Assembly: GCA_964504365.1 (NCBI GenBank)
Contig: CAZDDW010000005.1
Span: forward strand, 1,630 to 65,629
Direction: 5' to 3'
DNA length: 64,000 bases
Source of the DNA: an uncultured Gammaproteobacteria bacterium
GTDB taxonomy: Bacteria; Patescibacteriota; Patescibacteriia; UBA9934; CAZDDW01
The translations under genes and the position numbers were made by a program. Shown here one piece after another: positions 2,543-59,517 of this stretch (positions within the stretch are counted from its first letter, which is position 1; each line of letters begins with the position of its first letter). Under the pieces are notes generated by a model. It worked only from the letters and a program-made list of their open reading frames with translations. It searched no databases and had not been told where the DNA came from.

Positions 2543-3445
2543 TTATTCAGCTGGGACGTATTGCCGGTGGCAGGTATAGTCGTAAACATCATCAGCGACC
2601 CTTTCAGCATTATTGTCATAACTACCAGCACAGATTTCAATCAGATCAGGATGATATGTAGCTTCATCCATCTGGTAATAACTCCACCAACTATGTCCAG
2701 CGTCACCGTATCCAGTACCCACTAAATGCTCGCCGTTAAGTGCACGTGGGTAGAATGTGAAAGCAAAATCCATCATGGACGAGATTTGGTTATAATAACG
2801 GATACTGCCATAAGCCTTTCCTGGTGCATAGTCACCAATAACTAAACCAAAATTGCTAGTTGTAAAGGCAAAAAACAACTCATCATCATCTTTACAAATT
2901 CGTGACAAGTACAGATCACTGTAATAAGTCGATTCACTGGTCTCAACTAACGCAGCGATTAATATATCAATATCAATGTTAGCCGGGGCAAATTCAGTTA
3001 TCAAGTCATTAAATATTTCTGTTTCTACGTCAGCAAGATCAATGCCTCCGTAAGCCCGTTCTAGATCTGGGTGGTAATTAAGATCGTAACAATTATCAAA
3101 AGGCTCTTTATCCATGCTAGACAAATAAGTAACTTCTTGCCAAAGATTTGTCACTCCTGGATCAACATCGTCAGATGTAATTGTCCCAGAAACGTCGTAA
3201 AGAATTGTGGCATCGGTTGTTGTTTCTGGTTCGTCTGCTTCCACCAGCATCAGATCATCTGCGGTGATAAGATTTGGGTCGTTAGCCTCATCTGATTCCA
3301 TGTTTGTCCAAATCAGAGCGATTACAAGCACGGCGATGATGATAAATAAAATCGGACCAATGATCCAATGGGCGATATGTGATTTGCACTTTGACTTAAC
3401 CTCAACTTCAGGTGTGGTCTCAGTAAGGTCTTGCATATTTGGCAT
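2543..3445 (-). CDS. hypothetical membrane-anchored acidic secreted protein
   Basis: 300 aa, N-terminal TM (WIIGPILFIIIAVLVIALIW), D/E-rich ectodomain. Confidence 0.6.
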   Translation of the reverse strand: MPNMQDLTETTPEVEVKSKCKSHIAHWIIGPILFIIIAVLVIALIWTNMESDEANDPNLITADDLMLVEADEPETTTDATILYDVSGTITSDDVDPGVTNLWQEVTYLSSMDKEPFDNCYDLNYHPDLERAYGGIDLADVETEIFNDLITEFAPANIDIDILIAALVETSESTYYSDLYLSRICKDDDELFFAFTTSNFGLVIGDYAPGKAYGSIRYYNQISSMMDFAFTFYPRALNGEHLVGTGYGDAGHSWWSYYQMDEATYHPDLIEICAGSYDNNAERVADDVYDYTCHRQYVPAE

Positions 3446-3476
3446 AAAAGTATTTAATAATAATCTAAGTCTACCT

Positions 3477-3507
3477 TAAAAGAAAAAAGCGCTCAAGGAG
3501 CGCCTAG
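3477..3507 (-). terminator. intrinsic terminator (gcgctccttgagcgc + T-run) for gene 3550-3768; near-duplicate at 3860-3885
   Basis: aaaaaagcgctcaaggagcgcc and aaaaaagcgctcaaggcgctt. Confidence 0.55.
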
Positions 3508-3549
3508 GAGTAAGGGCCGGTACGATTGTTGTATAGGGTGAGTAGTCGG

Positions 3550-8312: not shown

Positions 8313-8554
8313 GCGGAACCCTTCAGGGTTCCATTTTGTTTAGCCGGCCACGGATGACTCGGACATTCTTTTTGTGAGAAGCACTCGGCCTATTCGTAGA
8401 ATGATTAAAGAATGTTGTCAGGCCTCGTTCGGGTTCCGCCGGGACCGCCACCGTTAGTTGTAATACGAGATAATGATGTGGGCCCGGCTCCACATGTTCT
8501 CACAAAAAGAATATCCTCGTCATTTATATCTGACGATCAGAAAAGTGGCCGGCC
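8313..8554. repeat. ~210-bp TIR element (GCCGGCCAC...GTGGCCGGCC) with fused upstream terminator hairpin, copy 1
   Basis: near-identical copies at 27855-28300 and 41855-42090; internal inverted repeat ACATTCTTTTTGTGAGAA / TTCTCACAAAAAGAATAT. Confidence 0.8.
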
Positions 8555-8973: not shown

Positions 8974-10638
8974 ATGTTACACGAACTATTTTTTCAGATT
9001 GGGATAGTTTTAATTGTTGCGGCCGCGGCTTCAATGGTTATCTTCAGACTGCGCCAGCCTTTAATGATCGGCTACATTATTGCCGGTATTTTTGTTGGTT
9101 CAATTGTTTTTGGTTTTGCTAAAAGCACTGAGGCTTTTCAAGCCATGTCTGAGATCGGTGTGGCTTTCTTGTTGTTTACGGTGGGACTGAACTTGAATTG
9201 GCGTCGGGTAAAAGAGGTTGGTTGGATTTCACTTGCATCTGGTGTTGGTCAGGTTCTATTTACCACGATTATGGGTTATGCGATTGGGCTTGCTGTTGGC
9301 CTGGACTCGCTAACTAGTTTTTATCTTGGTCTGGCTTTCTCATTCTCAAGTACGATTATTATTGTTAAGTTGCTGGCAGACAAAGAAGACCTGGATCGGC
9401 TTTACGGAAAAATTGCTGTTGGTTTCTTGATTGTCCAGGACATTATCGCCATGATTGTGTTGCTGGTACTTGGCGCTCTTTCCGGCGGGTACGAGGTCCA
9501 GAATATTATCACCTTGGCTTTTGGAAAGGGAATTCTGGCCATTATCTTGCTTTGGTTGATTGCGACTTATATCGTTCCGCGCCTAGTTGCTTACGCTGCC
9601 CGGTCGCTTGAGCTCCTGTTCTTGTTCTCAATTGGTTGGTGTTTCTTAATCGCTGGTCTGCTTTACGTGCTTGGCTTCGGGGTTGAGGTTGGTGCACTGC
9701 TTGCTGGCGCTTCACTTGCTGGCACGATTTATCACAACGAGATCAATGCTCGAATCCGTCCGCTGCGTGACTTCTTCCTGATTATGTTCTTTATTATTCT
9801 CGGAGCACGGCTTGAGTTTGCTGCCTTAACTGAGATTTGGCTTCCAGTCCTGGCTTTCTCAGCTTTTGTTTTAATCGGCAATCCAATCGTGGTCATGTTG
9901 ATCATGCGTGTGCTCAAGTATCACCCGCGTACCAGCTTTTTAACCGGAAACACGGTTGGACAGATTAGTGAGTTTGGTTTTATTGTTCTGGCAGCCGGGA
10001 TCGCTTTGGGACACATAAGCCCACAAATGAATTCGCTAGCTGTGTTTGTGGCTTTGATTACTATTGCTGGGTCGGCTTATTTGATCAAGTATAACGAGTG
10101 GATATACGATGCTTTGCAACCAGTGTTGCGCTGGCTGGCTCCTACTGATGCAGATGTTCATGATAAAGCTGATCACAAAAAAGCAAAGCAAGTGCATACG
10201 ACTTTGATCGGATACGACCGTATGGGCGAAACAATTTTGCCAGAGATTCAAAAAATGAAAAAGTCTTTCCAGGTGATCGACTTAAATCCACAGACAATCG
10301 AAGAATTAGATGAAAAGGATATTGCTGCGGTTTATGGTGATGCTGGTGATAGTCGTTTCTTGTCTGAGATCGGGATTCAAAAAAGCAAGATGATCATTTC
10401 AACTATTGCTGATTTTACAATTAGTATTGATTTGTTGGGTTATCTGCGGCGCCGTAGTTATAAAGGGGTTATTGTTGTTGCCTGCCGTACTCCGCAAGAA
10501 GCACACAAGTTGTATGACAAAGGAGCAACCTTTGTTATTGTCCCAAGTATTTTGGGTGCTGAGCGTTTTGGTGATATCTTGAAGAAGAAAAAGGGAAGCA
10601 AGCAATCATGGTTAAAAGCCATTCCTAAAAAAGCCTAA
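8974..10638 (+). CDS. monovalent cation:proton antiporter (CPA2/Kef-type) with C-terminal TrkA-N/RCK domain
   Basis: 554 aa; ~12 TM N-terminal; C-terminal Rossmann-like segment LIGYDRMGETILPEI...; extended -10 TGcTATAAT immediately upstream (near-leaderless). Confidence 0.7.
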   Translation: MLHELFFQIGIVLIVAAAASMVIFRLRQPLMIGYIIAGIFVGSIVFGFAKSTEAFQAMSEIGVAFLLFTVGLNLNWRRVKEVGWISLASGVGQVLFTTIMGYAIGLAVGLDSLTSFYLGLAFSFSSTIIIVKLLADKEDLDRLYGKIAVGFLIVQDIIAMIVLLVLGALSGGYEVQNIITLAFGKGILAIILLWLIATYIVPRLVAYAARSLELLFLFSIGWCFLIAGLLYVLGFGVEVGALLAGASLAGTIYHNEINARIRPLRDFFLIMFFIILGARLEFAALTEIWLPVLAFSAFVLIGNPIVVMLIMRVLKYHPRTSFLTGNTVGQISEFGFIVLAAGIALGHISPQMNSLAVFVALITIAGSAYLIKYNEWIYDALQPVLRWLAPTDADVHDKADHKKAKQVHTTLIGYDRMGETILPEIQKMKKSFQVIDLNPQTIEELDEKDIAAVYGDAGDSRFLSEIGIQKSKMIISTIADFTISIDLLGYLRRRSYKGVIVVACRTPQEAHKLYDKGATFVIVPSILGAERFGDILKKKKGSKQSWLKAIPKKA

Positions 10639-10639
10639 T

Positions 10640-10897
10640 ATGAATGATGTAAATATTTGCCAATCATGCGGCATGCCAATGAAGGAGGAAGTGGACTACG
10701 GGAAGACTGAGGATGGGAGTCCGAGCTATGAGTACTGTGCTCATTGTTTTCAGGAGGGGAAATTTACTTTTGAATGTGGATCAGTGGAGGAGTTTGCCGA
10801 ACATGTGCTTGAGGCAATGGCTGGATCTGAGGAAGCACCTGAAATGGACAAAGAAGAAATGTTGGTTGTTTTGAAAGGGTTGGGGAGGTGGAAGTAA
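10640..10897 (+). CDS. zinc-ribbon domain small protein
   Basis: 85 aa; CxxC...CxxC (CQSCGM ... CAHCF). Confidence 0.5.
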   Translation: MNDVNICQSCGMPMKEEVDYGKTEDGSPSYEYCAHCFQEGKFTFECGSVEEFAEHVLEAMAGSEEAPEMDKEEMLVVLKGLGRWK

Positions 10898-10898
10898 A

Positions 10899-10970
10899 AA
10901 AGTAGAAAGTAGAAGGTAGATAGTAGAAAGATTCAAAATCTTTCTACTTTTAACTTTCTACTCTCTACTA
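10899..10970. repeat. palindromic array of GTAGAxA heptamers (copy 1)
   Basis: agtagaa agtagaa ggtagat agtagaa ag - loop - inverted copies; related arrays at 38006-38083 and 40392-40478. Confidence 0.8.
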
Positions 10971-10974
10971 AAAA

Positions 10975-12101
10975 CAACAAAAAAACAGGACAAATGTCCT
11001 GTAGAAAGTACTCGAGCCCAGGGGCAGCTAACGACGTCGTCGTTAGCGCCCGCTGGGCTCTTGAGGCTGCAGGCCAAGGGTCGGCCTGCGAGGGTCGGTT
11101 TGTTGTCACCGACAGGTCATGTCAGAGCTGGGACTCCGCGGCATGTGCGTAGCCGCGGTTGTATGTGCCAGGAGCACTAATCGAAGCCGTCGATCCACCA
11201 GTACCACATCGTGATACCTCCTCGAGGATGAACATGCAGTGACCGGCCCGTTACGTGGGCGGCGCGCGTCGTCGGTTCGTGGGCGCGCCGCCGCCGTCGG
11301 GGGTGCCGGTCTTGGTTCTTGCTTCTTCAGAAAAAGAGATCAGGGCATATCGGAGCCCCAGGCCGACAGTGGAGTCGCCTTGACTCCTCTGAGCCCGTTC
11401 ATGCGCAGCTGTCATTGTTGGCTGTCTTTTATCAAAGCCTAGCCAGCTGTTAACGAACGAGCTACCGTCTCTCGTAGAGGATCAGCATTCTGCACTCCTT
11501 GGTGCGGTTATTTGCGCCGTGTCCTCGGTGGCGCTCATACTCCTGAGGGGTTGCTGTGGCAAACATGTGCGCTAGCCACGTCGCGCGCGGGCTCACCCCG
11601 CAACGCATCAATAGCCAAAGTGACTCGGAAATCGACGCATGTCACCTCCGTCCTGCACGTCGGCAGGACCATCTTGCCCCTTGGTCCGGGGCTGACCTCG
11701 ATCCCACCTGCCCCGTTGTCCCGGGATCAGGTGCGTGCCCGGCAACCGTGCCAGGCAGGAGCGGCCGCAGGCGGCGGCGGTGGGGGTAGAAGTTCCAGAA
11801 CTCCCCATCGCCGCACACCTGCGACACACTCGTCGTCCACCGGGTAGGTCACCCGGTTCTCCGGAGCGCAGCGCTCGATCAGCGGGCTCATCTCGCCCGC
11901 CGCGCGTTGCGAACCATTGATCTCACCAGCTGTGTCTCGGCGGTCTTGCCGCCGTCAGCCAGTATCACCGGTGTTTTAGGCGGGTTGATCCCCGCGGTTT
12001 ACCGGTTGTTGTTGTGGCCCCGCTGGCCCAGCTCTTCGCCAGCGGATACCGATCAAAGGAACGCACGATCAGCGCGGATGTGTCGCCACCTCCGGAATCG
12101 T
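10975..12101 (-). ncRNA. GC-rich (~65%) ~1.13-kb transcription unit without convincing ORF: candidate large structured ncRNA (alternative: decayed pseudogene)
   Basis: minus-strand TTGACA-17-TATATT promoter at 12108-12136; minus-strand intrinsic terminator caggacatttgtcctg + U-run at 10971-11001; only short overlapping ORFs in all six frames. Confidence 0.4.
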
Positions 12102-12194: not shown

Positions 12195-12235
12195 TTGACA
12201 GGCTTAAATTAGCACTCTATAATTAAGAGTGCTAA
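12195..12235 (+). promoter_or_regulatory. hrcA promoter (TTGACA-17-TATAAT) overlapping CIRCE operator TTAGCACTC-N9-GAGTGCTAA
   Basis: cttgacaggcttaaattagcactctataattaagagtgctaa; perfect 9-nt inverted repeat with 9-nt spacer. Confidence 0.9.
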
Positions 12236-12941: not shown

Positions 12942-13404
12942 GAAACAAGACAACCAGATAACTGAACAACCAGATAACTGTGAACAATGCGAAGCATATC
13001 TCACTGGTTGGAAACGGGCCTTAGCAGATTACGATAATTTGCAAAAGGACTTGGCTCGAGAAAAAGAAAGCACACGTTTGTACCTGATCGAAGAGTTGGC
13101 AGATAAGTTAATCCCAATCACGGATCATTTCACGCAAGCCATGAAGCACGTTCCGGAAGGTGCGGAGGGCTGGCTAGACGGTATCAAGATGATCAAAAAA
13201 CAGATGATGGGTGTACTTGAATCATTTGAGTGTTACCCGATCGATCCGGTACGTAAAAAGTTTGATCCAAACGAGCATGAGGCCCTGGGAACTGAGAAAC
13301 GAAAAGATTCAGACGATGAGATAGTACTAGAGGTGGTCGAGCGCGGCTGGAAGCTTGGCCAAAAAGTAATCCGTCCAGCAAAGGTGATTATTAACAAAAA
13401 ATAA
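12934..13404 (+). CDS. grpE: nucleotide exchange factor GrpE
   Basis: 156 aa; coiled-coil N-term and GrpE C-terminal motif; operon context. Confidence 0.85.
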   Translation: MSKKQDNQITEQPDNCEQCEAYLTGWKRALADYDNLQKDLAREKESTRLYLIEELADKLIPITDHFTQAMKHVPEGAEGWLDGIKMIKKQMMGVLESFECYPIDPVRKKFDPNEHEALGTEKRKDSDDEIVLEVVERGWKLGQKVIRPAKVIINKK

Positions 13405-13538
13405 CCAATGACCAAATTCCAATGACCAAGATAATCACCCAGTGGTCTAATGATCAAAGGTTTCGATCATTCGGTCATTGATCATTACCTCGTTCATTGA
13501 TTATTGATCATTGGTCATTCGTGTAAAAGCAAACATTT

Positions 13539-17194: not shown

Positions 17195-17965
17195 ATGCCT
17201 GATCCATATATCAGCATTACTGACTTCACGACCCGAGAACAAGTACTTGAGATGTTGCAGGTACTCATCAGGGCCCAGGGTGCCAGGCAAACACACAAGC
17301 TTGGTGTTGGGGTGATGATGAGTCACAAGACTCTGAATGGGTTGCCAACCAAGTGGGCCGATGTTTTTCCGCACAACGAAGATGTTGCTGGAATTTTCGT
17401 AGATCATCCCTTGGCCTTTGGTACACTCCACTACGCAGACTTCAAAGGGATCGACGTGGCAGCCAACCTGGCTCAGGCAACTGGGTTTGGCGGGCCGAAC
17501 ATGCATGCCTTGCAACTGGACATGATTTGGCCGGATTCGCAGGTGCTGATTGACTACCGGATCAGATATCCGAAAATCAAGATCATCTTGCAGATCAACT
17601 CGCGTTCGCTGGACATGGTTGACAACGACCCGCGCAAGCTCTTGCGCGTTCTACGTGCCTACAACACGACCGTTGATTACGTGCTCTTGGACAAGAGTAT
17701 GGGTCGCGGTCAAGGTATGCAGGCCGAAGTACTCATGCCGTTTGTAGAAGCGATCGTCATGCACCGGTCTGATCTGGAGATCGTGGTGGCTGGCGGGCTT
17801 GGTCCCGATACCATGCACCTGGCCGCACCGCTTGTTGAGCGTTCTCAGCGCCTGAGTTTCTGTGCACAGGGCCAGATGAGGGCCAGTGGCAATGCCTTGG
17901 ATCCGATCGAATGGGACCGGGCAACAGAATATCTGCGCCAGTCAGTGGCGCTGCTCAGGAGGTAA
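17195..17965 (+). CDS. TIM-barrel protein resembling phosphoribosylanthranilate isomerase (TrpF-like), GC-rich islet
   Basis: YVLLDKSMGRGQG...VVAGGLGPDT...LSFCAQGQMRASGNALDP matches the TrpF C-terminal phosphate-binding pattern (VLLD..GG.G / AGGL.PDN / GLD..SGVE..pG.KD); promoter TTGACA-17-TAAGCT at ~17118-17150. Confidence 0.4.
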   Translation: MPDPYISITDFTTREQVLEMLQVLIRAQGARQTHKLGVGVMMSHKTLNGLPTKWADVFPHNEDVAGIFVDHPLAFGTLHYADFKGIDVAANLAQATGFGGPNMHALQLDMIWPDSQVLIDYRIRYPKIKIILQINSRSLDMVDNDPRKLLRVLRAYNTTVDYVLLDKSMGRGQGMQAEVLMPFVEAIVMHRSDLEIVVAGGLGPDTMHLAAPLVERSQRLSFCAQGQMRASGNALDPIEWDRATEYLRQSVALLRR

Positions 17966-17996
17966 ACTCACAGGACCAGCAATGGTCCTTTTTTAA
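17966..17996 (+). terminator. intrinsic terminator
   Basis: caggaccagcaatggtcctttttt. Confidence 0.6.
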
Positions 17997-18132
17997 TTAA
18001 ACACCAAGCACCAAATAATAAATCCCAAACTATAAATGTTTGGAATTTGGATATTGGGATTTGGTGTTTCTCCATGTAACCTCTTGACTAATCCCGTGTA
18101 TACTATAGGGTAGCTAGACTCGAAAGAGTTTT

Positions 18133-18624
18133 ATGGCCAACAAACATAGACAATTCACAAAATTTTATAAGGCGAACATAAACCGAATCTATCGATTCGT
18201 GTTTTTTCGTGTAAATGATCAGGATATTGCAGAAGACCTGACCAGTGAAATTTTCATGAAAGCGCTTAATGCTTTTGATCGCTACGATGTTAAACAGTCT
18301 CGCTCAGCCTGGCTCTATGCAATCGCTCGCAATCATTTAATAAATTATTATCGAGACAAAAAAGAAACTATCGATATCGATAAAATTGAATTTGAGTTGG
18401 TTGGTGAAGACGGTCGAGATACAATGGAAAAGCAGTCAGCAGTTGAAACACTTAAACGAGCGTTGAATAAATTATCAGGTCATGAGCAGAAACTTGTAAC
18501 CATGAAGCACCTTGAGGGGTATACATATGCAGAGATGGCAGATGTTCTTGGAAAATCTGCTGGCTCACTCAAGGTCGCTACACACAGGGCTCTGATCAAG
18601 CTCAAGACCTTAATCGCGCGATAA
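18133..18624 (+). CDS. ECF-type RNA polymerase sigma factor (sigma-70 family region 2 and 4)
   Basis: 163 aa; region 2 DLTSEIFMKAL...SAWLYAIARNHLINYYR; region 4 HTH YAEMADVLGKSAGSLKVATHRA. Confidence 0.85.
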   Translation: MANKHRQFTKFYKANINRIYRFVFFRVNDQDIAEDLTSEIFMKALNAFDRYDVKQSRSAWLYAIARNHLINYYRDKKETIDIDKIEFELVGEDGRDTMEKQSAVETLKRALNKLSGHEQKLVTMKHLEGYTYAEMADVLGKSAGSLKVATHRALIKLKTLIAR

Positions 18625-19384: not shown

Positions 19385-20119
19385 CTAGTCCTTGTCGTTG
19401 TCCTCGGGGATGAAGTCGACGGCGTACAACCGGACCTTGATGTCGTGTTCTCCGGTTTGCTCGACTTTGACCTCGACTATTCCGGCCCAGGCTTGGTTGA
19501 GCAGCAGGATCAGTTCTGTTGCCTGTTCCAGGTTCTCGAAGCCGTAGTTTTCGAGGTCTCTGAATTTGACCGAGAAGTCGTTGCATCCGCCGCGACGAGT
19601 GTTCTCGATCATGTGACTGAGTTCTTCCGGCAGTGTCCACCAGCCGTCGGGCTCGAGAGGGAACCAGCCCTTCTCTTCGGCAAAAGCCTGCAGTTCTTCC
19701 GGGATGCACTCCATCAGCTCCCGAACCATGTTCTCCCAGATTCGCTCGGCCAGGATCTGATGATGCCACTGCTCGTAGTGGGCGGCGGCCAAAGGCTTGG
19801 CCTTGACGTAGTCTCTCCAGCCTTTTTCGAACCAGTCCTTGAGGAGCTGAAGAGCCATCTGTGCCGGCTCGACTCCAGGTGCCAGTTGGATCCCCATGGT
19901 ATTTTCCAGAGTCTCCTCAGGAGTAAGCCGGGCCGCCCACCTGTTTTCGTTGTCCTTGGACAGGGTGATGGTCAGTTCAGAGCCGTGGGAGAGGACCACG
20001 ATTTCGGCTTGCGAGCACTCGGGATCCGCTGTTTCGGGGTGACGCACGTCGAAGATTGTTTCGGGAGGGAAGACGTATCCAGTAATCTTGCGAACCCAAT
20101 CCAAATCCAATTGTTCCAT
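19385..20119 (-). CDS. paralog A of GC-rich domain-shuffled family (shared N-domain, distinct C-terminal region)
   Basis: AEIVVLSHGSELTITLSKDNENRWAARL matches D AEVVVAGRNVTIELAEITPNSWAAWEV and B ADIVIDDIEYRLCLRLDSGAWRSHVF; GGAG SD; co-transcribed with B. Confidence 0.6.
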   Translation of the reverse strand: MEQLDLDWVRKITGYVFPPETIFDVRHPETADPECSQAEIVVLSHGSELTITLSKDNENRWAARLTPEETLENTMGIQLAPGVEPAQMALQLLKDWFEKGWRDYVKAKPLAAAHYEQWHHQILAERIWENMVRELMECIPEELQAFAEEKGWFPLEPDGWWTLPEELSHMIENTRRGGCNDFSVKFRDLENYGFENLEQATELILLLNQAWAGIVEVKVEQTGEHDIKVRLYAVDFIPEDNDKD

Positions 20120-20158
20120 GATTGTTCTCCAGTTTCTTGGCCTAGAAAGGACCGGTTT

Positions 20159-20791
20159 CTATCGGTTCAGTAGTGCCTGGCGGAAAGCCTCGAGGACCTC
20201 GCGCGCGGGTGTTGTGGAATCAAAGCCGTATGTACCCCAGTCTTCATCTGTCCCAAGTAGCGTGGCCTCCCATGGTCCAATGATCCCGTGTGACCTTCTG
20301 AAGCTGAAGCTCACCAGCTCGTACATTTGGACCGTGACCAGGAAGGTGTGCTCGAGTTCCGGGTGTGGCATGACTCGATGGTCTCCACCTTGCCAGACCT
20401 GTCCGACCAGAGCATCGAGCTCATCGCGGGTGATCAAGGGCAGGGCCGGCACTTCGGAATGGTTGGGCGTCGTCGTTTCCTGTTCTCGTCTATCGAGGGC
20501 AAAGGAGGCCAGTTCTCTGATGGCTCCGCTGAGTATTTCGTAGGGGTTGCAGGAACCAAATTTATCGGGGACGACCGTGGGATCCTCGTCGGTATTTGCG
20601 TCGTTGATGGTTGCTGAGAAGACATGACTTCGCCAAGCACCAGAATCGAGTCGTAGACAAAGTCGATATTCGATATCATCGATTACAATGTCAGCGTAGT
20701 AGGCATCAGGTTGTCCAAGGCAACCAACCTTCTTTACGTAGCTAGTGAAGGCGTCTCGGATCTCATTTTCGAAGAAGTGTGAATTCATCAT
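20159..20791 (-). CDS. paralog B (shared N-domain + shared C-domain)
   Basis: start MMNSHFFENEIRDAF; C-terminal ITRDELDALVGQVW...TTPAREVLEAFRQALLNR aligns with C and D; promoter TTGACA-17-TATCTT at 20847-20875 (minus). Confidence 0.6.
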   Translation of the reverse strand: MMNSHFFENEIRDAFTSYVKKVGCLGQPDAYYADIVIDDIEYRLCLRLDSGAWRSHVFSATINDANTDEDPTVVPDKFGSCNPYEILSGAIRELASFALDRREQETTTPNHSEVPALPLITRDELDALVGQVWQGGDHRVMPHPELEHTFLVTVQMYELVSFSFRRSHGIIGPWEATLLGTDEDWGTYGFDSTTPAREVLEAFRQALLNR

Positions 20792-21035
20792 TGTCTCGGA
20801 TTGTTGCGAGAATTTTATTGTTGAAATGACCGGAAAATTACTAAGCAAGATAACACAAAAATAAGCTCGTGTCAAGGCAAGCAAGCTTATTTGTAGGGTG
20901 TTTCTTGAAATTAAAGAACCCGCAGCGTTGCACTGCGGGTCTGAGCAAAGAAAGGGCCTTGGGGTTGGTCAAGAATACCTGCTCATTGAGATTGTTCGAT
21001 CAGCAATTATTACTAACAAATCTCAAGGTCGCTAT

Positions 21036-21722
21036 CTAGCCCATCAGTCTCTTCTTCAACCCAACCAGGATTTCTCTGGCCGAGGTGCTGTGATCCGTGG
21101 CACTTTCCAGGAATTTGCTCTGTGGCTCGTGGGCTCTCCACTGGCCGAGCGAAACGCTCATCTCGATGGTCATCAGCTCGAACATGAAGACATCGGCCTT
21201 GAACACCGGAGCTGCATCCGCACCTTCGTTCCTGGTAGCACGCACGTCATCGAAGACCTGCCTGACAGCAGTGTCGAACTGCTCCAGGGTCATGGGCGGA
21301 GGCGCGGGCAACTCTTCGCTCACGGGCGCTGCCGGCCGGCTTGCCTTCCTTGGTGCCGGGCTGGTGCTCTTGCCTTCGCGCAACGGGATGCGGGTGAGCA
21401 CACCATCTTCGGCAATCACACCTTCGGGCGTGACCTGGAAGAGCCAATCGTTGATCTGGATGTAGCACTGACGATCACGGTGACCGTACCAGAGATCGAC
21501 TACACCGTAATGGGCCGAAACACTGGCCGCGCTCAGGTACATGTATGGATCGCGGCGGGTTCCGCTGCCTCTTTCGTAAGGCTGTCCGGTGGATCCCTTG
21601 GAGTACCGACGATGCCGCCGTCTGGCGTCGTAGACATGATCCGGTTTGAGCGTGGTCGTCTGACCCTTGTGCGATGCGTGGATGTTCGGGGCTCGTGCTT
21701 GTGTTTCTCCGAAAGTCGGCAT
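21036..21722 (-). CDS. paralog C (distinct Arg-rich N-region, Pro-rich linker, shared C-domain)
   Basis: MTLEQFDTAVRQVFDDVR...STSAREILVGLKKRLMG aligns with D LSLDQFTAAIERVFNDVR...TTPYDVLKALKAKLMG; promoter TTGACA-17-TATGCT 21782-21810 (minus); terminator 20917-20947. Confidence 0.6.
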   Translation of the reverse strand: MPTFGETQARAPNIHASHKGQTTTLKPDHVYDARRRHRRYSKGSTGQPYERGSGTRRDPYMYLSAASVSAHYGVVDLWYGHRDRQCYIQINDWLFQVTPEGVIAEDGVLTRIPLREGKSTSPAPRKASRPAAPVSEELPAPPPMTLEQFDTAVRQVFDDVRATRNEGADAAPVFKADVFMFELMTIEMSVSLGQWRAHEPQSKFLESATDHSTSAREILVGLKKRLMG

Positions 21723-28361: not shown

Positions 28362-28421
28362 TAAGCGTCTCTTGCACCTGCAAGGGTTGTTCGTTTAACG
28401 GCTTTTTGCCAAAGCAACAAG

Positions 28422-29999
28422 TTGATTGGAGAAAGAATGTCCCGTTACATGCACATCACCATCGGTATCCTGATCACAATGAGCCTGGCCGCAACAGCCG
28501 TGGCCAAGCCGCGCATCATGCGCGCGGAAAATTTCCATCGTACCTGCGACCTCGAGTCCTTCCAGAACTACAACGACCTGCAGCTGGAAACCGAGCATTT
28601 CACTCTGGGCGCGCCGATCTGTATGGGCGAAGGCTCTGTGGCCTACGACCCGGATTATCTGAGTAGCGCCGATCGTCTGGACAGAAGGCTGCTTCACGAG
28701 GAGATTCGAGTGGTCAGCCAGGCTTACCTGGATGTACTCGAGCGCATGGTCCATGCCAACTGGGGTCGTGACGATTACGCCGACGCCTACCTGGGCTCGT
28801 CCATCCGTCAGCTACGTCTAGGCATGTGCTTTCCACACCGCACCTATGAGGTAGACGATGGCAGCGTACGCATGTGGGCTCACTTCGTGTCCGATCCGAG
28901 TGGCGCAATCAAGGGGCCGAGCTACCTCAACCTGCTTCTCGAGCGAGCGGTCGAACTGCGTGACCGTGATGCAGTCGAGGCCTTGCTCTATCTGTTCACG
29001 GTCATTCGCAAGAATGATCCCATTAGCGCAGCCAGCAACTGCGAGTACTTGCAGAACAGCCTGTTCGAGAACGAGCTGGCCGGCTACCTCTACGCCGGAG
29101 ACTTGGAGGCGGCTGATGCTTTCGTCCAGGAATTCGGTTTCCTAGCCGACTCAAGTGCCTTCTCGGTCTACGAGTTCTATAGTGATCGTGTCTGGGGTGA
29201 CCAGGTCAAGATGGTCGCCAGTGACATCTACGAGGATCACCTGCAGGCTGGTGACTATGATCTGGCCGATGCTTTGGTCAAGCACTACGGACTGGCTCCA
29301 CCACAGTGCGCCACCAGCATCCAGGAAACCATGCGCCAGCACTTCAGGCAGGCCTTCCTGGACTACGATTTGGATACTCCGGATGAGGTTCTGGAGATGA
29401 TGGCTCGTTACGACTACGACGTCAAGATGGTCGAGTGGGCTCGTGAGTGGGGCTACGCCTACGCTGGCTACGCCCTGATGGAGCCATGTTCGGAGCTCGA
29501 ACCACGTTCGGATGAGCTGGACTGCCGATGGCAGATCGAGCTGCGTCTGGATGACATGCCCATGGCCAGTAGGATCCATGTGGTCGAGGCTTCGCTCAGC
29601 TGGTACAGCGGAATTACTGTCGACGATCTGGTGTACAAGCATCAGCTGATGAAGGCCCTCAAGGTCGACATGGACCTGGTCATGCCCAAGCTGGCCGAGG
29701 AGCTCAAGGAGAATGCTCAGCTGGCTTTCGGTGATCTCCTCGATGGGATGGATCATTGGCAGTACACCACGGCCATCTACTACGCCATGGAAGAGATGGG
29801 TTACGAGCCTTTGCTCGATTACCCGAATCCGGTGTTCAGCTGCGACATTCTGCCCTACGGGAACTCGTCGCGCGAGTCCGGGATCTGGTTCCTCCAGTGC
29901 GCTGGCGGCATCGACTACGTCGAGCTCATTGCCACTGGCGAGCAGCACGGCGAGGACTACCGTCAGGCCGTAGAATCCGGTCAGACCTTCATGGACTGA
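28422..29999 (+). CDS. hypothetical secreted protein (signal peptide), GC-rich islet
   Basis: 525 aa; N-terminal signal ITIGILITMSLAATAVA; acidic, Tyr/Asp-rich; long antisense ORF 29151-30002 judged a GC shadow. Confidence 0.55.
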   Translation: MIGERMSRYMHITIGILITMSLAATAVAKPRIMRAENFHRTCDLESFQNYNDLQLETEHFTLGAPICMGEGSVAYDPDYLSSADRLDRRLLHEEIRVVSQAYLDVLERMVHANWGRDDYADAYLGSSIRQLRLGMCFPHRTYEVDDGSVRMWAHFVSDPSGAIKGPSYLNLLLERAVELRDRDAVEALLYLFTVIRKNDPISAASNCEYLQNSLFENELAGYLYAGDLEAADAFVQEFGFLADSSAFSVYEFYSDRVWGDQVKMVASDIYEDHLQAGDYDLADALVKHYGLAPPQCATSIQETMRQHFRQAFLDYDLDTPDEVLEMMARYDYDVKMVEWAREWGYAYAGYALMEPCSELEPRSDELDCRWQIELRLDDMPMASRIHVVEASLSWYSGITVDDLVYKHQLMKALKVDMDLVMPKLAEELKENAQLAFGDLLDGMDHWQYTTAIYYAMEEMGYEPLLDYPNPVFSCDILPYGNSSRESGIWFLQCAGGIDYVELIATGEQHGEDYRQAVESGQTFMD

Positions 30000-30095
30000 C
30001 AACTACACGCGAGCGACTTGCGTTCGAGCATCTGAAAAGGTGCTCTTTTTCTTTTTAAGCTCAGGTTTGGCTTATTCGTCTGGCTCTGATAAAAT

Positions 30096-31715
30096 ATGGC
30101 CGATATGTCAGAAACACTTTATCGCAAATATCGACCAACCAGGTTTAAGGACGTGGTTGGACAGGAGCATGTAGTGACAACCCTGGGCAATCAGCTCAAG
30201 AATGGGTCAGTTGCTCATGCTTATTTGTTTACTGGACCGCGGGGAGTGGGGAAGACCACACTCGCTCGTTTGTTGGCTAAGGCTGTTAACTGTGAGAAGC
30301 GTGGAGAAGACCATGAGCCGTGTAATAAGTGTGATGCTTGTAATGAGGTTAATCTTGGTAACTCGCTTGATGTCTATGAAATCGACGCCGCCTCGCACAC
30401 CGGAGTTGATAATGTGCGTGAGAATATTATCGAATCAGTCCGATTTGCTCCGAACCAACGTAAGTTCAAGGTGTATGTGATCGACGAGGTGCACATGCTT
30501 TCAACATCTGCTTTTAATGCGTTGTTGAAAACATTGGAAGAGCCACCAGCACACGCTTTGTTTATTTTGGCTACGACCGAGATTCATAAGGTTCCTGAGA
30601 CTATCATTTCTCGCTGTCAGCGATTTGATTTCAAAAGAATTCGAACACCAGAATTGATTAAGCGTCTTAAAGGGCTGATTAAGAAAGAAGAGGTTGAAGT
30701 TGATGAAGCAGTCTTGTCAGAGGTGGCGCGACATTCTGAAGGATGCTTGCGCGATGCTGAGAGTATGATGGGGCAGATTCTGGCAATCGGAGAAAAGAGG
30801 ATTGGGATTGATGAGGCCTCATTAGTTTTGCCAACAACAAATATAAATTTTGTGATTGATTTTGTTGATGCGGTTGGCCGGTCTGATGCATCTGAGGCTG
30901 TGCGAATGATCAATAAATTTGTGGATGAAGGGGTGGATCTGGGGCATTTCGCAGAAGATACTGTATCGGTGCTGCGTTCAATGTTATTTGCAAGTCTTGG
31001 TGGGCTGGATCAGTTCCATCAGGAATATGATGCTGATATTACCAAACGGCTTGAGCAAAGCTTAAAGAATTTTACTAGTCAGAAGTTGTCTGAGGCGATC
31101 AACCTCCTCCTTGACGCCAGACGAGGGCTGCGGCTAGAAAAAATTCCTCAGCTCCCACTCGAGCTCGCGGTTGTAGAGTTGACCAAGCAACCAGTCAACC
31201 AGAAAACCAGTCAACCAGAAAACCAAATAACCGCAGAACCTGCGGAAGAGAAGGGGCCCCCACTCCCAAAAGTGCAGGCTAAGGAGGAAGTTCTTGAGGT
31301 TGAGGAGGTTTCGAGTGTTTCGAAGGTTGCGAGTGTTGCTGAGGTTCCAGAGACCCTCGAAACTCCCGACACTCCCGAAACCCTCAGTACCCCCGCAACC
31401 CACGTAACCCTCGACACTATCAAAACTCGCTGGAACGAAGTGTTTGAACTGATCGCGCAGAGCAACGGCTCGTTACCACTGATTCTGCAGTCAACAGAGA
31501 TCCTGTCTTTTGAAGGCGGAACACTTGAACTAGGTTTCCAGTTTGCTTTTCATGCAGACATGATCAATGATCAAAAAAATAACGTTAAGATCACAGAGGT
31601 AATAAGTGAAGTGTTTGGATCAAAGATATTGATCAAGGCCGTGCATCGTGCAAGTGCCAAAGACGAGGTGGTTGCAGATTTAGTGGCTGAGTTTGGGGGA
31701 AAGGTTGTTGGATAA
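30096..31715 (+). CDS. dnaX: DNA polymerase III subunit gamma/tau
   Basis: RFKDVVGQEHVV, Walker A GPRGVGKTT, Zn module CNKCDACNE, sensor SRCQRFDF; repetitive Pro/Glu/Thr linker near C-term. Confidence 0.93.
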   Translation: MADMSETLYRKYRPTRFKDVVGQEHVVTTLGNQLKNGSVAHAYLFTGPRGVGKTTLARLLAKAVNCEKRGEDHEPCNKCDACNEVNLGNSLDVYEIDAASHTGVDNVRENIIESVRFAPNQRKFKVYVIDEVHMLSTSAFNALLKTLEEPPAHALFILATTEIHKVPETIISRCQRFDFKRIRTPELIKRLKGLIKKEEVEVDEAVLSEVARHSEGCLRDAESMMGQILAIGEKRIGIDEASLVLPTTNINFVIDFVDAVGRSDASEAVRMINKFVDEGVDLGHFAEDTVSVLRSMLFASLGGLDQFHQEYDADITKRLEQSLKNFTSQKLSEAINLLLDARRGLRLEKIPQLPLELAVVELTKQPVNQKTSQPENQITAEPAEEKGPPLPKVQAKEEVLEVEEVSSVSKVASVAEVPETLETPDTPETLSTPATHVTLDTIKTRWNEVFELIAQSNGSLPLILQSTEILSFEGGTLELGFQFAFHADMINDQKNNVKITEVISEVFGSKILIKAVHRASAKDEVVADLVAEFGGKVVG

Positions 31716-32275: not shown

Positions 32276-33067
32276 TTAATCGTTGTGTATCTTATGTAAC
32301 ACTATTCCTGCGCTAATTGCAACATTTAGAGATTCCATGTTATTTGACATCTTGATCCTAATAAATTCATCACTTAAAGCTCGAACATCTTCACTTATTC
32401 CATGAGCTTCGTTTCCAAAAACAATACAAAAGGTTTCTTTTTCAGCAAGCTGATTTAGTTTGGGTGATCCATCAAGCGCGGTTGAAATAATTGGTATTTG
32501 TTTTTTGATTTGTTTTAGGATTGTTCGATCATGGTCATCTTGCTGAATATCAAGACTGAAAATTGCACCGCGTGCAGCTTGAACTACTTTTGGATTGTAA
32601 ATATCAACGCATTCTGCGTCGACTATGACCGTAGTTATGTTAAAAGCAAGCGCGGTACGAAGGATTGTGCCTAAGTTGCCAGGGTCAGAGATTGCGTTGA
32701 GATAGACGATGGGGTTGTCTGGTTTTCTGGTTTTCTGGTTTTCTGGTTGTTTGACTGAGTAAACTGCTGCAATTCCTGCTGGCGTATCAAGTTCAGAAAA
32801 GGCTTTGTTTACTTTTTCGTCGATCAAGTAAAATTCATCTAGCCCGCAGTCCTTTTCAATCTCAGTCCAGCGATCCACATCCTGGTCAATAAATTCTTGA
32901 GTTACAAAAAGGGAAGTTGGCTTAGAGCCGCTTTTTAGGGAATCAAGAAGAATAATCACGTTTTCAACCAGAAACTCACCAAACTCTTGGCGGTACTTTT
33001 TCATTGATAACTTTTTCAGTTTCTTGATTTTCTCGTTATCTTTGCTGGTGATTTCATTTACTTTCAT
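32276..33067 (-). CDS. SpoU/TrmH-family RNA 2'-O-methyltransferase (RlmB-like)
   Basis: NAISDPGNLGTILRTALAF and FGNEAHGISE...NVAISAGIVLH motifs; contains (GGTTTTCT)x3 in-frame repeat. Confidence 0.75.
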   Translation of the reverse strand: MKVNEITSKDNEKIKKLKKLSMKKYRQEFGEFLVENVIILLDSLKSGSKPTSLFVTQEFIDQDVDRWTEIEKDCGLDEFYLIDEKVNKAFSELDTPAGIAAVYSVKQPENQKTRKPDNPIVYLNAISDPGNLGTILRTALAFNITTVIVDAECVDIYNPKVVQAARGAIFSLDIQQDDHDRTILKQIKKQIPIISTALDGSPKLNQLAEKETFCIVFGNEAHGISEDVRALSDEFIRIKMSNNMESLNVAISAGIVLHKIHND

Positions 33068-58407: not shown

Positions 58408-59517
58408 CTAGAAGCGGAAGGTGGGTCCGAACTGGACACCAGCCCAGAAGCCGCGGCGGTCGCCACCGACTGTGGCCTCCAGGTTCAGGCCGAACTTGTC
58501 GGTTAGCATCAGGTCGATTCCACCGATGAGCACACCACCAGGCGCGGTCATCTCAGCACCGAAGCTGATCAGGAACGCGCCTCCGACGTAGGGTTGAGCC
58601 TTCTTGTCGCCGAAGCGATATCGGGCGCCAACACGGGCATGGGGCATGAGCATCAGCCAGCCACCAAGGTCAGACTCGAAGCGGACCATGTTGGCACCGC
58701 CACCGAGATCCAGCTCCAGACCCTTGACCAAGCGGACGTGTCCTCGCAGGCCGAAGTTCAGGTACTGGGCACCGTGTGCCTGGGCAAAGCCGATCACGCC
58801 GAGAGAAAGACCACCAGGACTTGGCTTGTCACCGTTCCCGTTGGTCACTGGCGGATCCGGCTCACGGTAGACCTGGACCAACAGTTTGTCACCACTGACA
58901 TTGACCACTCGCGTGAATACGCCTTGAGTGGTTGCATACTGGATTACGTGGATGCCTGGTCGAATCGGGATCGTGCCCGATACGCCAGGGTTGCGTGCTG
59001 TGCCATCCAAGGAGAAGTAGAGCACATCATCGTCGATCAAGTCGTAGTTGAGCTCGATCAACGGAAGTGCCATCACTTCACCCTTGGCAATCAGGAAAGC
59101 CTGCTGCGGATCTGGTGGGTAGTCAGTGTCCCAGGGCAAGGTCGGGTCGATGATCAGTGCACGTCGAAAGTTGTTCAGCGCGCCCTCGCGATCACCAGCG
59201 TTGAAGCTGGCCATGCCTTGGAAGTAGAACAGGTTGATCAGGGTATCTCGATCAATGTCCAGGTCGTTCATGCAGGACAGAGCAGTCATTGCCCGTCCGA
59301 GCGTGCCGCGGGCATTCTCGTCGCTCAGAGCATCGATCAGCTCGATTCCTCGAGCCAACTCAGCGGCAATGTCCAACCCGATCAGAGACGAGTCAAGGCA
59401 GGTTATTTCCTGGAAATCGCCGATGATCTGTACGAACTCTGGCGGATCTTCACTCTCCTGTGCTCCCACAGGCAAGCAGAAACTGAACAGTGCGAGAATT
59501 GCAGTATATCGCAACAT
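58408..59517 (-). CDS. secreted protein with N-terminal TPR-like region and Gly/Ala-rich beta-rich C-terminal domain ending in Phe (OMP beta-barrel-like), GC-rich islet
   Basis: signal MLRYTAILALFSFCLPVGAQ; C-terminus ...GVQFGPTFRF; alternating hydrophobic pattern in last ~200 aa. Confidence 0.5.
   Translation of the reverse strand: MLRYTAILALFSFCLPVGAQESEDPPEFVQIIGDFQEITCLDSSLIGLDIAAELARGIELIDALSDENARGTLGRAMTALSCMNDLDIDRDTLINLFYFQGMASFNAGDREGALNNFRRALIIDPTLPWDTDYPPDPQQAFLIAKGEVMALPLIELNYDLIDDDVLYFSLDGTARNPGVSGTIPIRPGIHVIQYATTQGVFTRVVNVSGDKLLVQVYREPDPPVTNGNGDKPSPGGLSLGVIGFAQAHGAQYLNFGLRGHVRLVKGLELDLGGGANMVRFESDLGGWLMLMPHARVGARYRFGDKKAQPYVGGAFLISFGAEMTAPGGVLIGGIDLMLTDKFGLNLEATVGGDRRGFWAGVQFGPTFRF

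Follow-up and report, generated by a model that had tools for sequence, protein, structure and literature searches.

The 64,000-nucleotide stretch of DNA analysed here (the window) contains, at three boundaries between genes, arrays in which a seven-nucleotide unit of the form GTAGANN is repeated head to tail and followed, after a spacer, by the same unit in inverted orientation. This raises the question of what kind of element these arrays are, how they came to lie where they do and whether they serve the genes that they separate. Heptanucleotide repeats have been known since 1990, when the STRR repeats of cyanobacteria were reportedly described by Mazel et al. They are the most common long simple-sequence repeat (SSR) in bacteria. 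In the account of Mrazek (2007) that is given in PMC4679880, they are the most abundant class of long SSR in most genomes. The known kinds comprise the STRRs, the long SSRs of Mrazek, the TAACTGA repeats and the promoter-proximal repeats of Nostoc, the role of which is still called unresolved (PMC4679880; bioRxiv 10.1101/2022.06.06.494920). The window offers a clean and datable case in a small Patescibacteria genome, where three related palindromic arrays were inserted at junctions that relatives keep compact. The arrays, the genes next to them and the canonical terminators of the window are as follows:

2499-2532, canonical terminator, short and GC-rich with T-run
10640-10897, + strand, Zn_ribbon_2 gene with TAA stop codon at 10895-10897
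10899-10970, copy 1: four GTAGANN units (10902-10929), apical loop near 10934-10936, four inverted units (10941-10968)
17973-17997, canonical terminator, short and GC-rich with T-run
36660-38006, + strand, DUF6938 gene with TAG stop codon at 38004-38006, within the first, degenerate unit of copy 2
38003-38085, copy 2: degenerate GTAGGA at 38003, four GTAGANN units (38009-38036), spacer of 17 nt (38037-38053), four inverted units (38054-38081)
38071-39003, - strand, RimK-family ligase gene, convergent with the DUF6938 gene, TAG stop codon at 38071-38073
39961-40410, + strand, VKOR gene with TAG stop codon at 40408-40410
40392-40472, copy 3: five GTAGANN units (40393-40427), spacer of 11 nt (40428-40438), four inverted units (40439-40466), TTTTTT (40467-40472)
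40475-41827, + strand, beta-CASP metallo-hydrolase gene, ATG 2 nt past the T-run of copy 3
41849-41865, canonical terminator, short and GC-rich with T-run

The original prediction had named three loci of palindromic heptamer arrays, and all three are present essentially where it had placed them, each with four or five tandem units, a spacer and four inverted units. On the + strand of copy 1, GTAGA starts at 10902, 10909, 10916 and 10923 and TCTAC at 10943, 10957 and 10964, the second unit from the loop in the right arm being degenerate (TTAAC). In copy 2, GTAGA starts at 38009, 38016, 38023 and 38030, and inverted units were found at 38056, 38070 and 38077 together with one degenerate unit (TCAAC). 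The five GTAGA of copy 3 lie at 40393-40425 and its four inverted counterparts at 40441-40466. Six A residues ahead of copy 1 on the + strand correspond to T6 after the array on the - strand, and the T-run that had been noticed behind copy 3 is the TTTTTT listed above; inspection of the flanks of copy 2 revealed a T-run on neither strand. A motif search of the window for GTAGANNGTAGA returned 15 occurrences compared to 0.05 +/- 0.22 expected, a number reached in 0 of 100 shuffles, and all 15 were confined to the three array loci. Lone GTAGA was not enriched in the window (89 vs 76 expected). Tandem Repeats Finder reported period-7 arrays in every arm, with 4.1-5.1 copies per arm. Motif counts and period thus bear out the claim that the loci form a repeat family. 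The proposed consensus of the unit was about right as well: GTAGA is intact in 23 of 25 in-register units, position 6 varies (A in 15, G in 7, T in 3, C in 1) and position 7 is mostly A (22).

An inverted-repeat finder returned arms of 33 nt with 85% complementarity for copy 1, of 23 nt with 87% for copy 2 and of 36 nt with 83% for copy 3. For each copy and on either strand, RNA folding predicted one long imperfect, A/U-rich hairpin of ~30 bp, with energies on the two strands of -35.0 and -33.4 kcal/mol (copy 1), -39.4 and -30.4 kcal/mol (copy 2) and -38.3 and -36.5 kcal/mol (copy 3). The z-scores of these folds ranged from -3.9 to -8.8 across copies and strands, with 0 of 200 shuffles being equally stable, and the imperfect hairpins of 30-35 bp that had been read from the letters are upheld by arms and folds alike. 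When in-register units were compared, variable positions that oppose each other in the stem did not carry compensatory changes. Pairing alone is therefore insufficient to explain the conserved GTAGA core. The sequence of the arrays was identical across several independent metagenome assemblies, so that an assembly artefact is excluded. The source samples are JGI 3300009374/3300009375, the SUTE22-1 and SCRA20-1 assemblies and the mesopelagic of TARA station 39. The identity extends over contigs L001-L004 and L252/L253, which are 99.9-100% identical overall; compared to relatives at 60-80% protein identity, the array content is wholly different.

The genes that flank the arrays code for a transporter, a Zn-ribbon protein, DUF6938, RimK, VKOR and beta-CASP proteins, and the arrays lie between the ORFs, with an overlap of at most 18 nt with any ORF end. 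The arrays had been called intergenic; this holds insofar as they mark boundaries between genes, but three stop codons fall within them (38004-38006, 38071-38073 and 40408-40410). The stop codon of the Zn_ribbon_2 gene is 4 nt before copy 1. In copy 2, the right arm takes in the TAG stop and the final few codons of the RimK gene, and the left arm of copy 3 encodes the TAG stop and the final six codons of VKOR. For annotation, this means that neighbouring genes take their stop codons from the arrays, which can also change the final few codons of these genes. The start codon of the beta-CASP gene behind copy 3 is backed by an alignment to a relative (MRLSFHG vs MKLSFHG). The nearest named homologues of RimK and of the Na+/H+ exchanger belong to Candidatus Uhrbacteria or Patescibacteria MAGs, with up to 80% identity, and cluster members come from a TARA mesopelagic sample. 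To judge from these proteins, the host is most likely a marine member of Candidatus Uhrbacteria (Patescibacteria).

The three copies have more in common than the unit. All three left arms contain GTAGAAGGTAGANAGTAGA, with a common unit order of xA-AG-xA-rA. In the right arm, one unit is degenerate at the matching position of copy 1 (GTTAA) and copy 2 (GTTGA), and the loops of copies 1 and 3 are similar. The shared unit order, degenerate unit and loops indicate related copies, not three independent local expansions. By these sequence features, the three loci are one small, lineage-specific dispersed family of quasi-palindromes of 70-85 bp. Its size is three copies in ~74 kb (the window plus 10 kb), no further copy being found in the 10 kb left of the window.

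The corresponding junctions of relatives date the arrays. In the contigs L245, L249/L250 and P0012, the VKOR and beta-CASP genes overlap by 4 nt (ATGA); the VKOR and beta-CASP proteins of L245 are 74% and 82% identical, respectively, to those of the window. The C-terminus of VKOR in the relatives differs from that in the window and overlaps the next gene by these 4 nt, which shows copy 3 to have been inserted at the operon junction, in place of the former C-terminus of VKOR. Copy 3 sits within a conserved three-gene operon. The RimK and DUF6938 genes overlap by 29 nt in L249. At the site of copy 1, the relative L260 (exchanger 82% identical) has a small canonical terminator, GACACCC-GTAA-GGGTGTC-TTTT, after the Zn-ribbon gene, and in L258 (exchanger 80%), where a Zn-ribbon gene was not called, a canonical terminator follows the exchanger gene. 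This comparison showed that all three copies are absent from the corresponding junctions of the relatives, and by that measure they were gained recently at gene boundaries. Other repeats are found in the relatives. The convergent RimK/DUF6938 junction of L247 (1740-1870; RimK 65% identical) holds a different hairpin, with GAGATATTG units ~20 nt apart followed by inverted CAATATCTC, and L251 carries a heptamer array, GTTAAAA / TTTTAAC, at 17608-17674, a site other than those of the window copies. In L258 (80% relative), the locus at 10095-10165, after dnaJ, consists of a one-armed TCTAC/TCCTAC heptamer array of 4.6 units (10112-10143) between the arms of an inverted repeat of 8 bp, TATAACAC / GTGTTATA. 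The lineage thus has GTAGA-type units in another architecture as well, and the presence of other repeats in relatives that are devoid of the window arrays at these sites points to a fast turnover of the elements.

In order to place the arrays in a wider class, ~1.5 Mb of loci were collected via GTAGA arrays, with gene contexts taken from crude ORF calls. The genome matches listed for GTAGA heptamer arrays belong to Acidobacteriota, Gemmatimonadota, Chloroflexota, Bacteroidota, Cyanobacteria and Patescibacteria. In this sample, seven was the commonest period reported by Tandem Repeats Finder (777 of 1966 rows), and the 228 neighbouring pairs of period-7 arrays included 86 inverted complements and 16 direct pairs. 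Among the matches listed, 31 of 125 GTAGA arrays in genomes and 17 of 122 in metagenomes had an inverted partner downstream, compared to 2 and 0, respectively, with one upstream. Exact patterns in the ~1.5 Mb sample gave a ratio of 29:1 for 5'-GTAGA...TCTAC-3' over 5'-TCTAC...GTAGA-3'. Palindromic arrays of other heptamers in the same sample had a purine-rich 5' arm in 20 cases and a pyrimidine-rich one in a single case; a stop codon was present in the 5' arm only in 14 and in the 3' arm only in 4 of these arrays. The purine-first polarity was kept in units devoid of stop codons, at ~7:1 on small numbers. Such a polarity is not predicted by a strand-symmetric mutational process alone. According to the crude ORF calls, the arrays of the sample lie in 23 convergent, 25 co-directional and 8 divergent contexts, and at least 5 T within 8 nt after the stem were found on 2.7% of strand-sides of the wider class. 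The asymmetry that strand-specific selection on the RNA via G-U wobble would leave was not found: of the 25 co-directional contexts, 9 had the more stable fold on the sense strand and 16 on the antisense strand (p = 0.37).

In a literature search, which had most subscription journals outside its reach, inverted heptamer arrays of fixed polarity were not found to have been described. The search likewise did not find two rules described that emerge from the sample, namely that adjacent arrays are mostly inverted pairs and that, on both strands, the purine-rich arm precedes the other. Both rules would constrain the explanation of heptamer repeats if they were confirmed on annotated genomes.

How do the arrays compare with known repeats? 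The REP/BIME and REPIN elements of proteobacteria are short imperfect palindromes at gene ends or between the genes of operons, which can make the mRNA upstream of them more stable and can terminate transcription weakly. The window arrays are dispersed imperfect palindromes at gene ends and within an operon like these, whereas REPs are GC-rich, present in hundreds of copies, tied to RAYTs and free of heptad substructure. STRRs and long SSRs consist, as do the window arrays, of head-to-tail 7-nt units in 3-10 copies, largely outside genes and sporadic over phyla. In contrast to them, the window arrays are paired with an inverted counterpart into a long hairpin, have a fixed purine-first polarity and make up a dispersed family with a common unit order; their host is a Patescibacterium, and the GTAGARA unit is not among the named STRRs. 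The TAACTGA heptamers of marine Beggiatoaceae also carry stop codons, with an overlap with ORF ends limited to 18 nt (MacGregor 2015, PMC4679880). They are intergenic, occur in several phyla and are suspected of a role at the RNA level, in all of which they are like the window arrays; unlike these, they are direct repeats just upstream of start codons, with one inverted case among 170 sets (PMC4679880). TAACTGA itself was not enriched in the window (10 vs 7.3 expected). On the strength of unit and arrangement, the arrays are the palindromic form of the heptanucleotide simple-sequence repeats of the STRR or long-SSR type that are found in many phyla.

As to what the arrays do, we propose that this palindromic heptanucleotide SSR acts as a leaky, REP-like RNA hairpin at gene ends and not as a classical terminator, a reading to which we give a probability of about one half. 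At all three copies, the purine-rich arm leads whichever strand is read. Since 7 is not a multiple of 3, TAG occurs in all three frames of this arm, which ends any incoming ORF within 18 nt. Three units suffice for a stop in each frame, as MacGregor also noted for TAACTGA (PMC4679880), and with the purine arm leading on both strands this applies to ORFs from either side. These all-frame stops would make an insertion at a gene end, or a few codons into it, tolerable. The arrays may have been born by slippage of 7-nt units together with copying between the arms or dispersal of a master copy. Transcription from either direction would then produce the A/U-rich hairpin of ~30 bp, the 3' arm of which is rich in pyrimidines. 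This hairpin could serve as a leaky transcription stop or attenuator that is independent of a U-tract and could shield the RNA against 3' exonucleases. During the zipping of the long stem, pyrimidine-rich RNA would be paired only weakly with purine-rich DNA, and this would account for the purine-first polarity. Since copy 3 lies between two genes of an operon, it would have to let most transcription through. Several results count against this reading: strand-specific selection on the RNA left no sign, the variable positions are uncompensated across the stem, U-tracts are rare and only three copies were found in ~74 kb. The copy 3 hairpin, moreover, ends 2 nt before a start codon, where it may equally well do harm or have no effect. 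The polarity itself may have either of two explanations, namely that stop-rich 5' arms are tolerated at the ends of ORFs, or that the weak hybrid allows termination that does not need a U-tract. We lean slightly towards the latter because the polarity is kept in the stop-free units, although their numbers are small.

The leaky hairpin has to be weighed against the bidirectional terminators of the original prediction, i.e. efficient intrinsic terminators in which a hairpin and a flanking T-run halt RNA polymerase from either side. The position at gene ends speaks for such terminators, as do the canonical terminator of L260 at the place of copy 1 and the bias of the wider class towards convergent and away from divergent junctions. 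Stable hairpins lie directly 3' of stop codons, copies 1 and 2 are where a terminator is expected, copy 2 at a convergent junction, and T6 tails follow copy 3 on the + strand and copy 1 on the - strand, so that stem-loop and tail resemble those of intrinsic terminators on two strand-sides. A terminator scanner returned an inner sub-hairpin of copy 1 with a T-rich tail, and nothing at copies 2 and 3. However, a U-tract is missing on four of the six strand-sides, two of which are those of the convergent copy 2, and the 2.7% of strand-sides with a T-run in the wider class point in the same direction. The stems of ~30 bp are A/U-rich and 3-4 times longer than those of intrinsic terminators, and differ from the canonical terminators of the window itself, which are short, GC-rich and followed by T-runs; instead of a short GC-rich stem of about 5-12 bp with a small loop, arms of 23-36 nt rich in A/T were found. 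Copy 3, moreover, sits in a conserved operon, and the beta-CASP gene that starts 2 nt after it is itself intact and conserved. The terminators of the original prediction are thus only partly borne out, and efficient bidirectional termination is unlikely in our judgement. We find it possible, if doubtful, that the arrays have no function at all: slippage of 7-nt units in replication, followed by template-switch copying between the arms, would have left them behind as neutral or selfish by-products, kept only where they do little harm. The absence of the copies from the matching sites of relatives and the rapid turnover, with another repeat at the junction in L247 and arrays elsewhere in L258 and L251, agree with this, as does the like behaviour of many different heptamers across many phyla; neither wobble asymmetry nor compensatory changes were detected, the all-frame stops render an insertion at a gene end harmless, and slippage has already been proposed as the origin of heptamer repeats (PMC4679880). 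Strand-symmetric mutation, however, would not be expected to yield a purine-first polarity of 20-29:1, or the weaker one of stop-free units, nor is it expected that substitutions cluster at position 6 while GTAGA stays intact, and the unit order common to the three copies argues for the copying of a master sequence and against independent local growth.

Conservation of the core beyond the needs of pairing is also what speaks for the binding array that had been proposed, in which a sequence-specific protein would read one GTAGA per 7 nt, either on DNA in the manner of the omega repressor or on RNA in the manner of HutP or cold-shock proteins. The five-base core is near-invariant with position 6 free to vary and uncompensated, the units are contiguous, direct and then inverted, and UAG is repeated at 4-nt spacing. 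There are precedents for such binding: the omega repressor of plasmid pSM19035 binds contiguous 7-bp heptad iterons with the unit WATCACW, the RNA site of HutP is UAG-N4-UAG, with two sets of three UAG triplets separated by 4-nt spacers, and cold-shock proteins have a footprint of about 7 nt. The omega heptads, like the window arrays, are 7-bp units without gaps between them, some direct and some inverted, but lie in promoters or centromere sites of the plasmid with the gene of the cognate ribbon-helix-helix protein adjoining, and none of this was found at the window arrays, which are at gene ends and in an operon and not at promoters. The first arm in the window fits UAG-N4, but the second arm reads CUA and not UAG in the same RNA. 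For the TAACTGA repeats, MacGregor proposed Csp, S1 or CsrA as binders (PMC4679880). Here, no candidate binder was found among the tested flanking proteins and no CspA- or HutP-like ORF in the window, the HutP result carrying little weight as its query sequence was approximate. The window also holds palindromic heptamer arrays with unrelated units (13400-13520 and 18000-18070), and other phyla have many units, so that many proteins would be needed; unrelated units with the same architecture in one genome favour an explanation that is independent of sequence. We therefore hold a dedicated binding protein to be quite improbable. About as much of a long shot is the broader proposition that purine-first inverted heptamer arrays are a widespread undescribed gene-end class, be it of U-tract-independent bidirectional terminators, in which a long stem would, as it zips, readily strip pyrimidine-rich RNA from purine-rich DNA, or of cooperative sites for an RNA-binding protein that is near-universal and covers 7 nt (e.g. 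cold-shock); if such a terminator or RNA-binding class were real, the excess of 7-nt (STRR-type) repeats in bacterial genomes, so long without an explanation, would have a function. Least of all do we expect REP/REPIN- or MITE-type elements that are moved by a transposase elsewhere in the genome, e.g. a hairpin-recognising Y1 enzyme (RAYT/IS200-like). A dispersed family with shared idiosyncrasies that is absent at the matching sites of relatives would suit mobile elements, and a Y1_Tnp gene lies just past the right window end in the sister assembly L257. This transposase, however, has its own unrelated GC-rich hairpins (ACCCCGGG...CCCGGGG), which are absent from the window; the three copies have neither target-site duplications nor separate terminal inverted repeats, their flanks merely extending the palindrome, a heptad substructure is foreign to REPs, and only three copies were found in ~74 kb.

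Some other identities were considered and rejected. A link to REP/RAYT was dismissed because the sole Y1_Tnp seen, in L257, is bounded by the unrelated CCCCGGG hairpins, and a MITE because no target-site duplication flanks any copy. A CRISPR-like reading fails as the units are contiguous and devoid of spacers, and a phage origin as just 2 matches were obtained among viral contigs, both of them direct arrays unrelated to the family. Rfam 15 at gathering threshold returned two tRNAs alone in the window and nothing at the arrays; in E-value mode, copy 1 gave sub-threshold matches to generic long-hairpin miRNA precursors, which reflect the long hairpin. The IS200-like Y1 transposase of L257 (148 aa; gene at 3058-3504) lies between ACCCCGGG-N-CCCGGGG hairpins at 2975-3538, and the JGI contig ends ~430 nt short of the place of this gene.

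The two arrays with unrelated units in the window are themselves palindromic. Between grpE and dnaK (13400-13520), CCAATGA-type units are followed by inverted TCATTGR, in resemblance to the cyanobacterial STRR2 (TTGGTCA), and the predicted fold of the - strand is far more stable there (-51 vs -32 to -35 kcal/mol). At 18000-18070, just past the canonical terminator at 17973-17997 and upstream of the gene of an ECF-type sigma factor (18133-18624), a heptamer hairpin is made of CCAAA-type and then TTTGGRA units. Tandem repeats of 8/16 nt containing AACCAGA are present at the hrcA/grpE junction both in the window (12950-12980) and in L258 (5047-5083; 80% relative), and similar 8-mer arrays at 31188-31232 and 32713-32748 lie within annotated ORFs even though their period is not a multiple of 3.

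A 1.1-kb GC-rich stretch (about 60%) at 11000-12100 is devoid of a credible ORF and is bounded on the - strand by a promoter-like site (12136-12108) and a terminator-like hairpin (11002-10985). This GC-rich non-coding stretch and a hairpin at 11014-11060 are also found at the matching place in L258 and L260. A search of the stretch against Rfam gave no match, and it may be a large non-coding RNA. Upstream of hrcA, the span 12195-12234 combines a perfect promoter (TTGACA-17-TATAAT) with an overlapping inverted repeat of the CIRCE type, TTAGCACTC-N9-GAGTGCTAA, and is conserved in L258. Three further GC-rich islands (19400-21700, 28400-30000 and 58600-59500), with 51-56% in 2-kb windows compared to about 45% overall, contain long ORFs that overlap on both strands, none of them with a Pfam match. 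A segment of ~150 nt occurs twice in opposite orientation (8319-8465 and 41853-42003) with 90% identity, each time adjoining a terminator-like hairpin, and may be a dispersed repeat or a small RNA gene.
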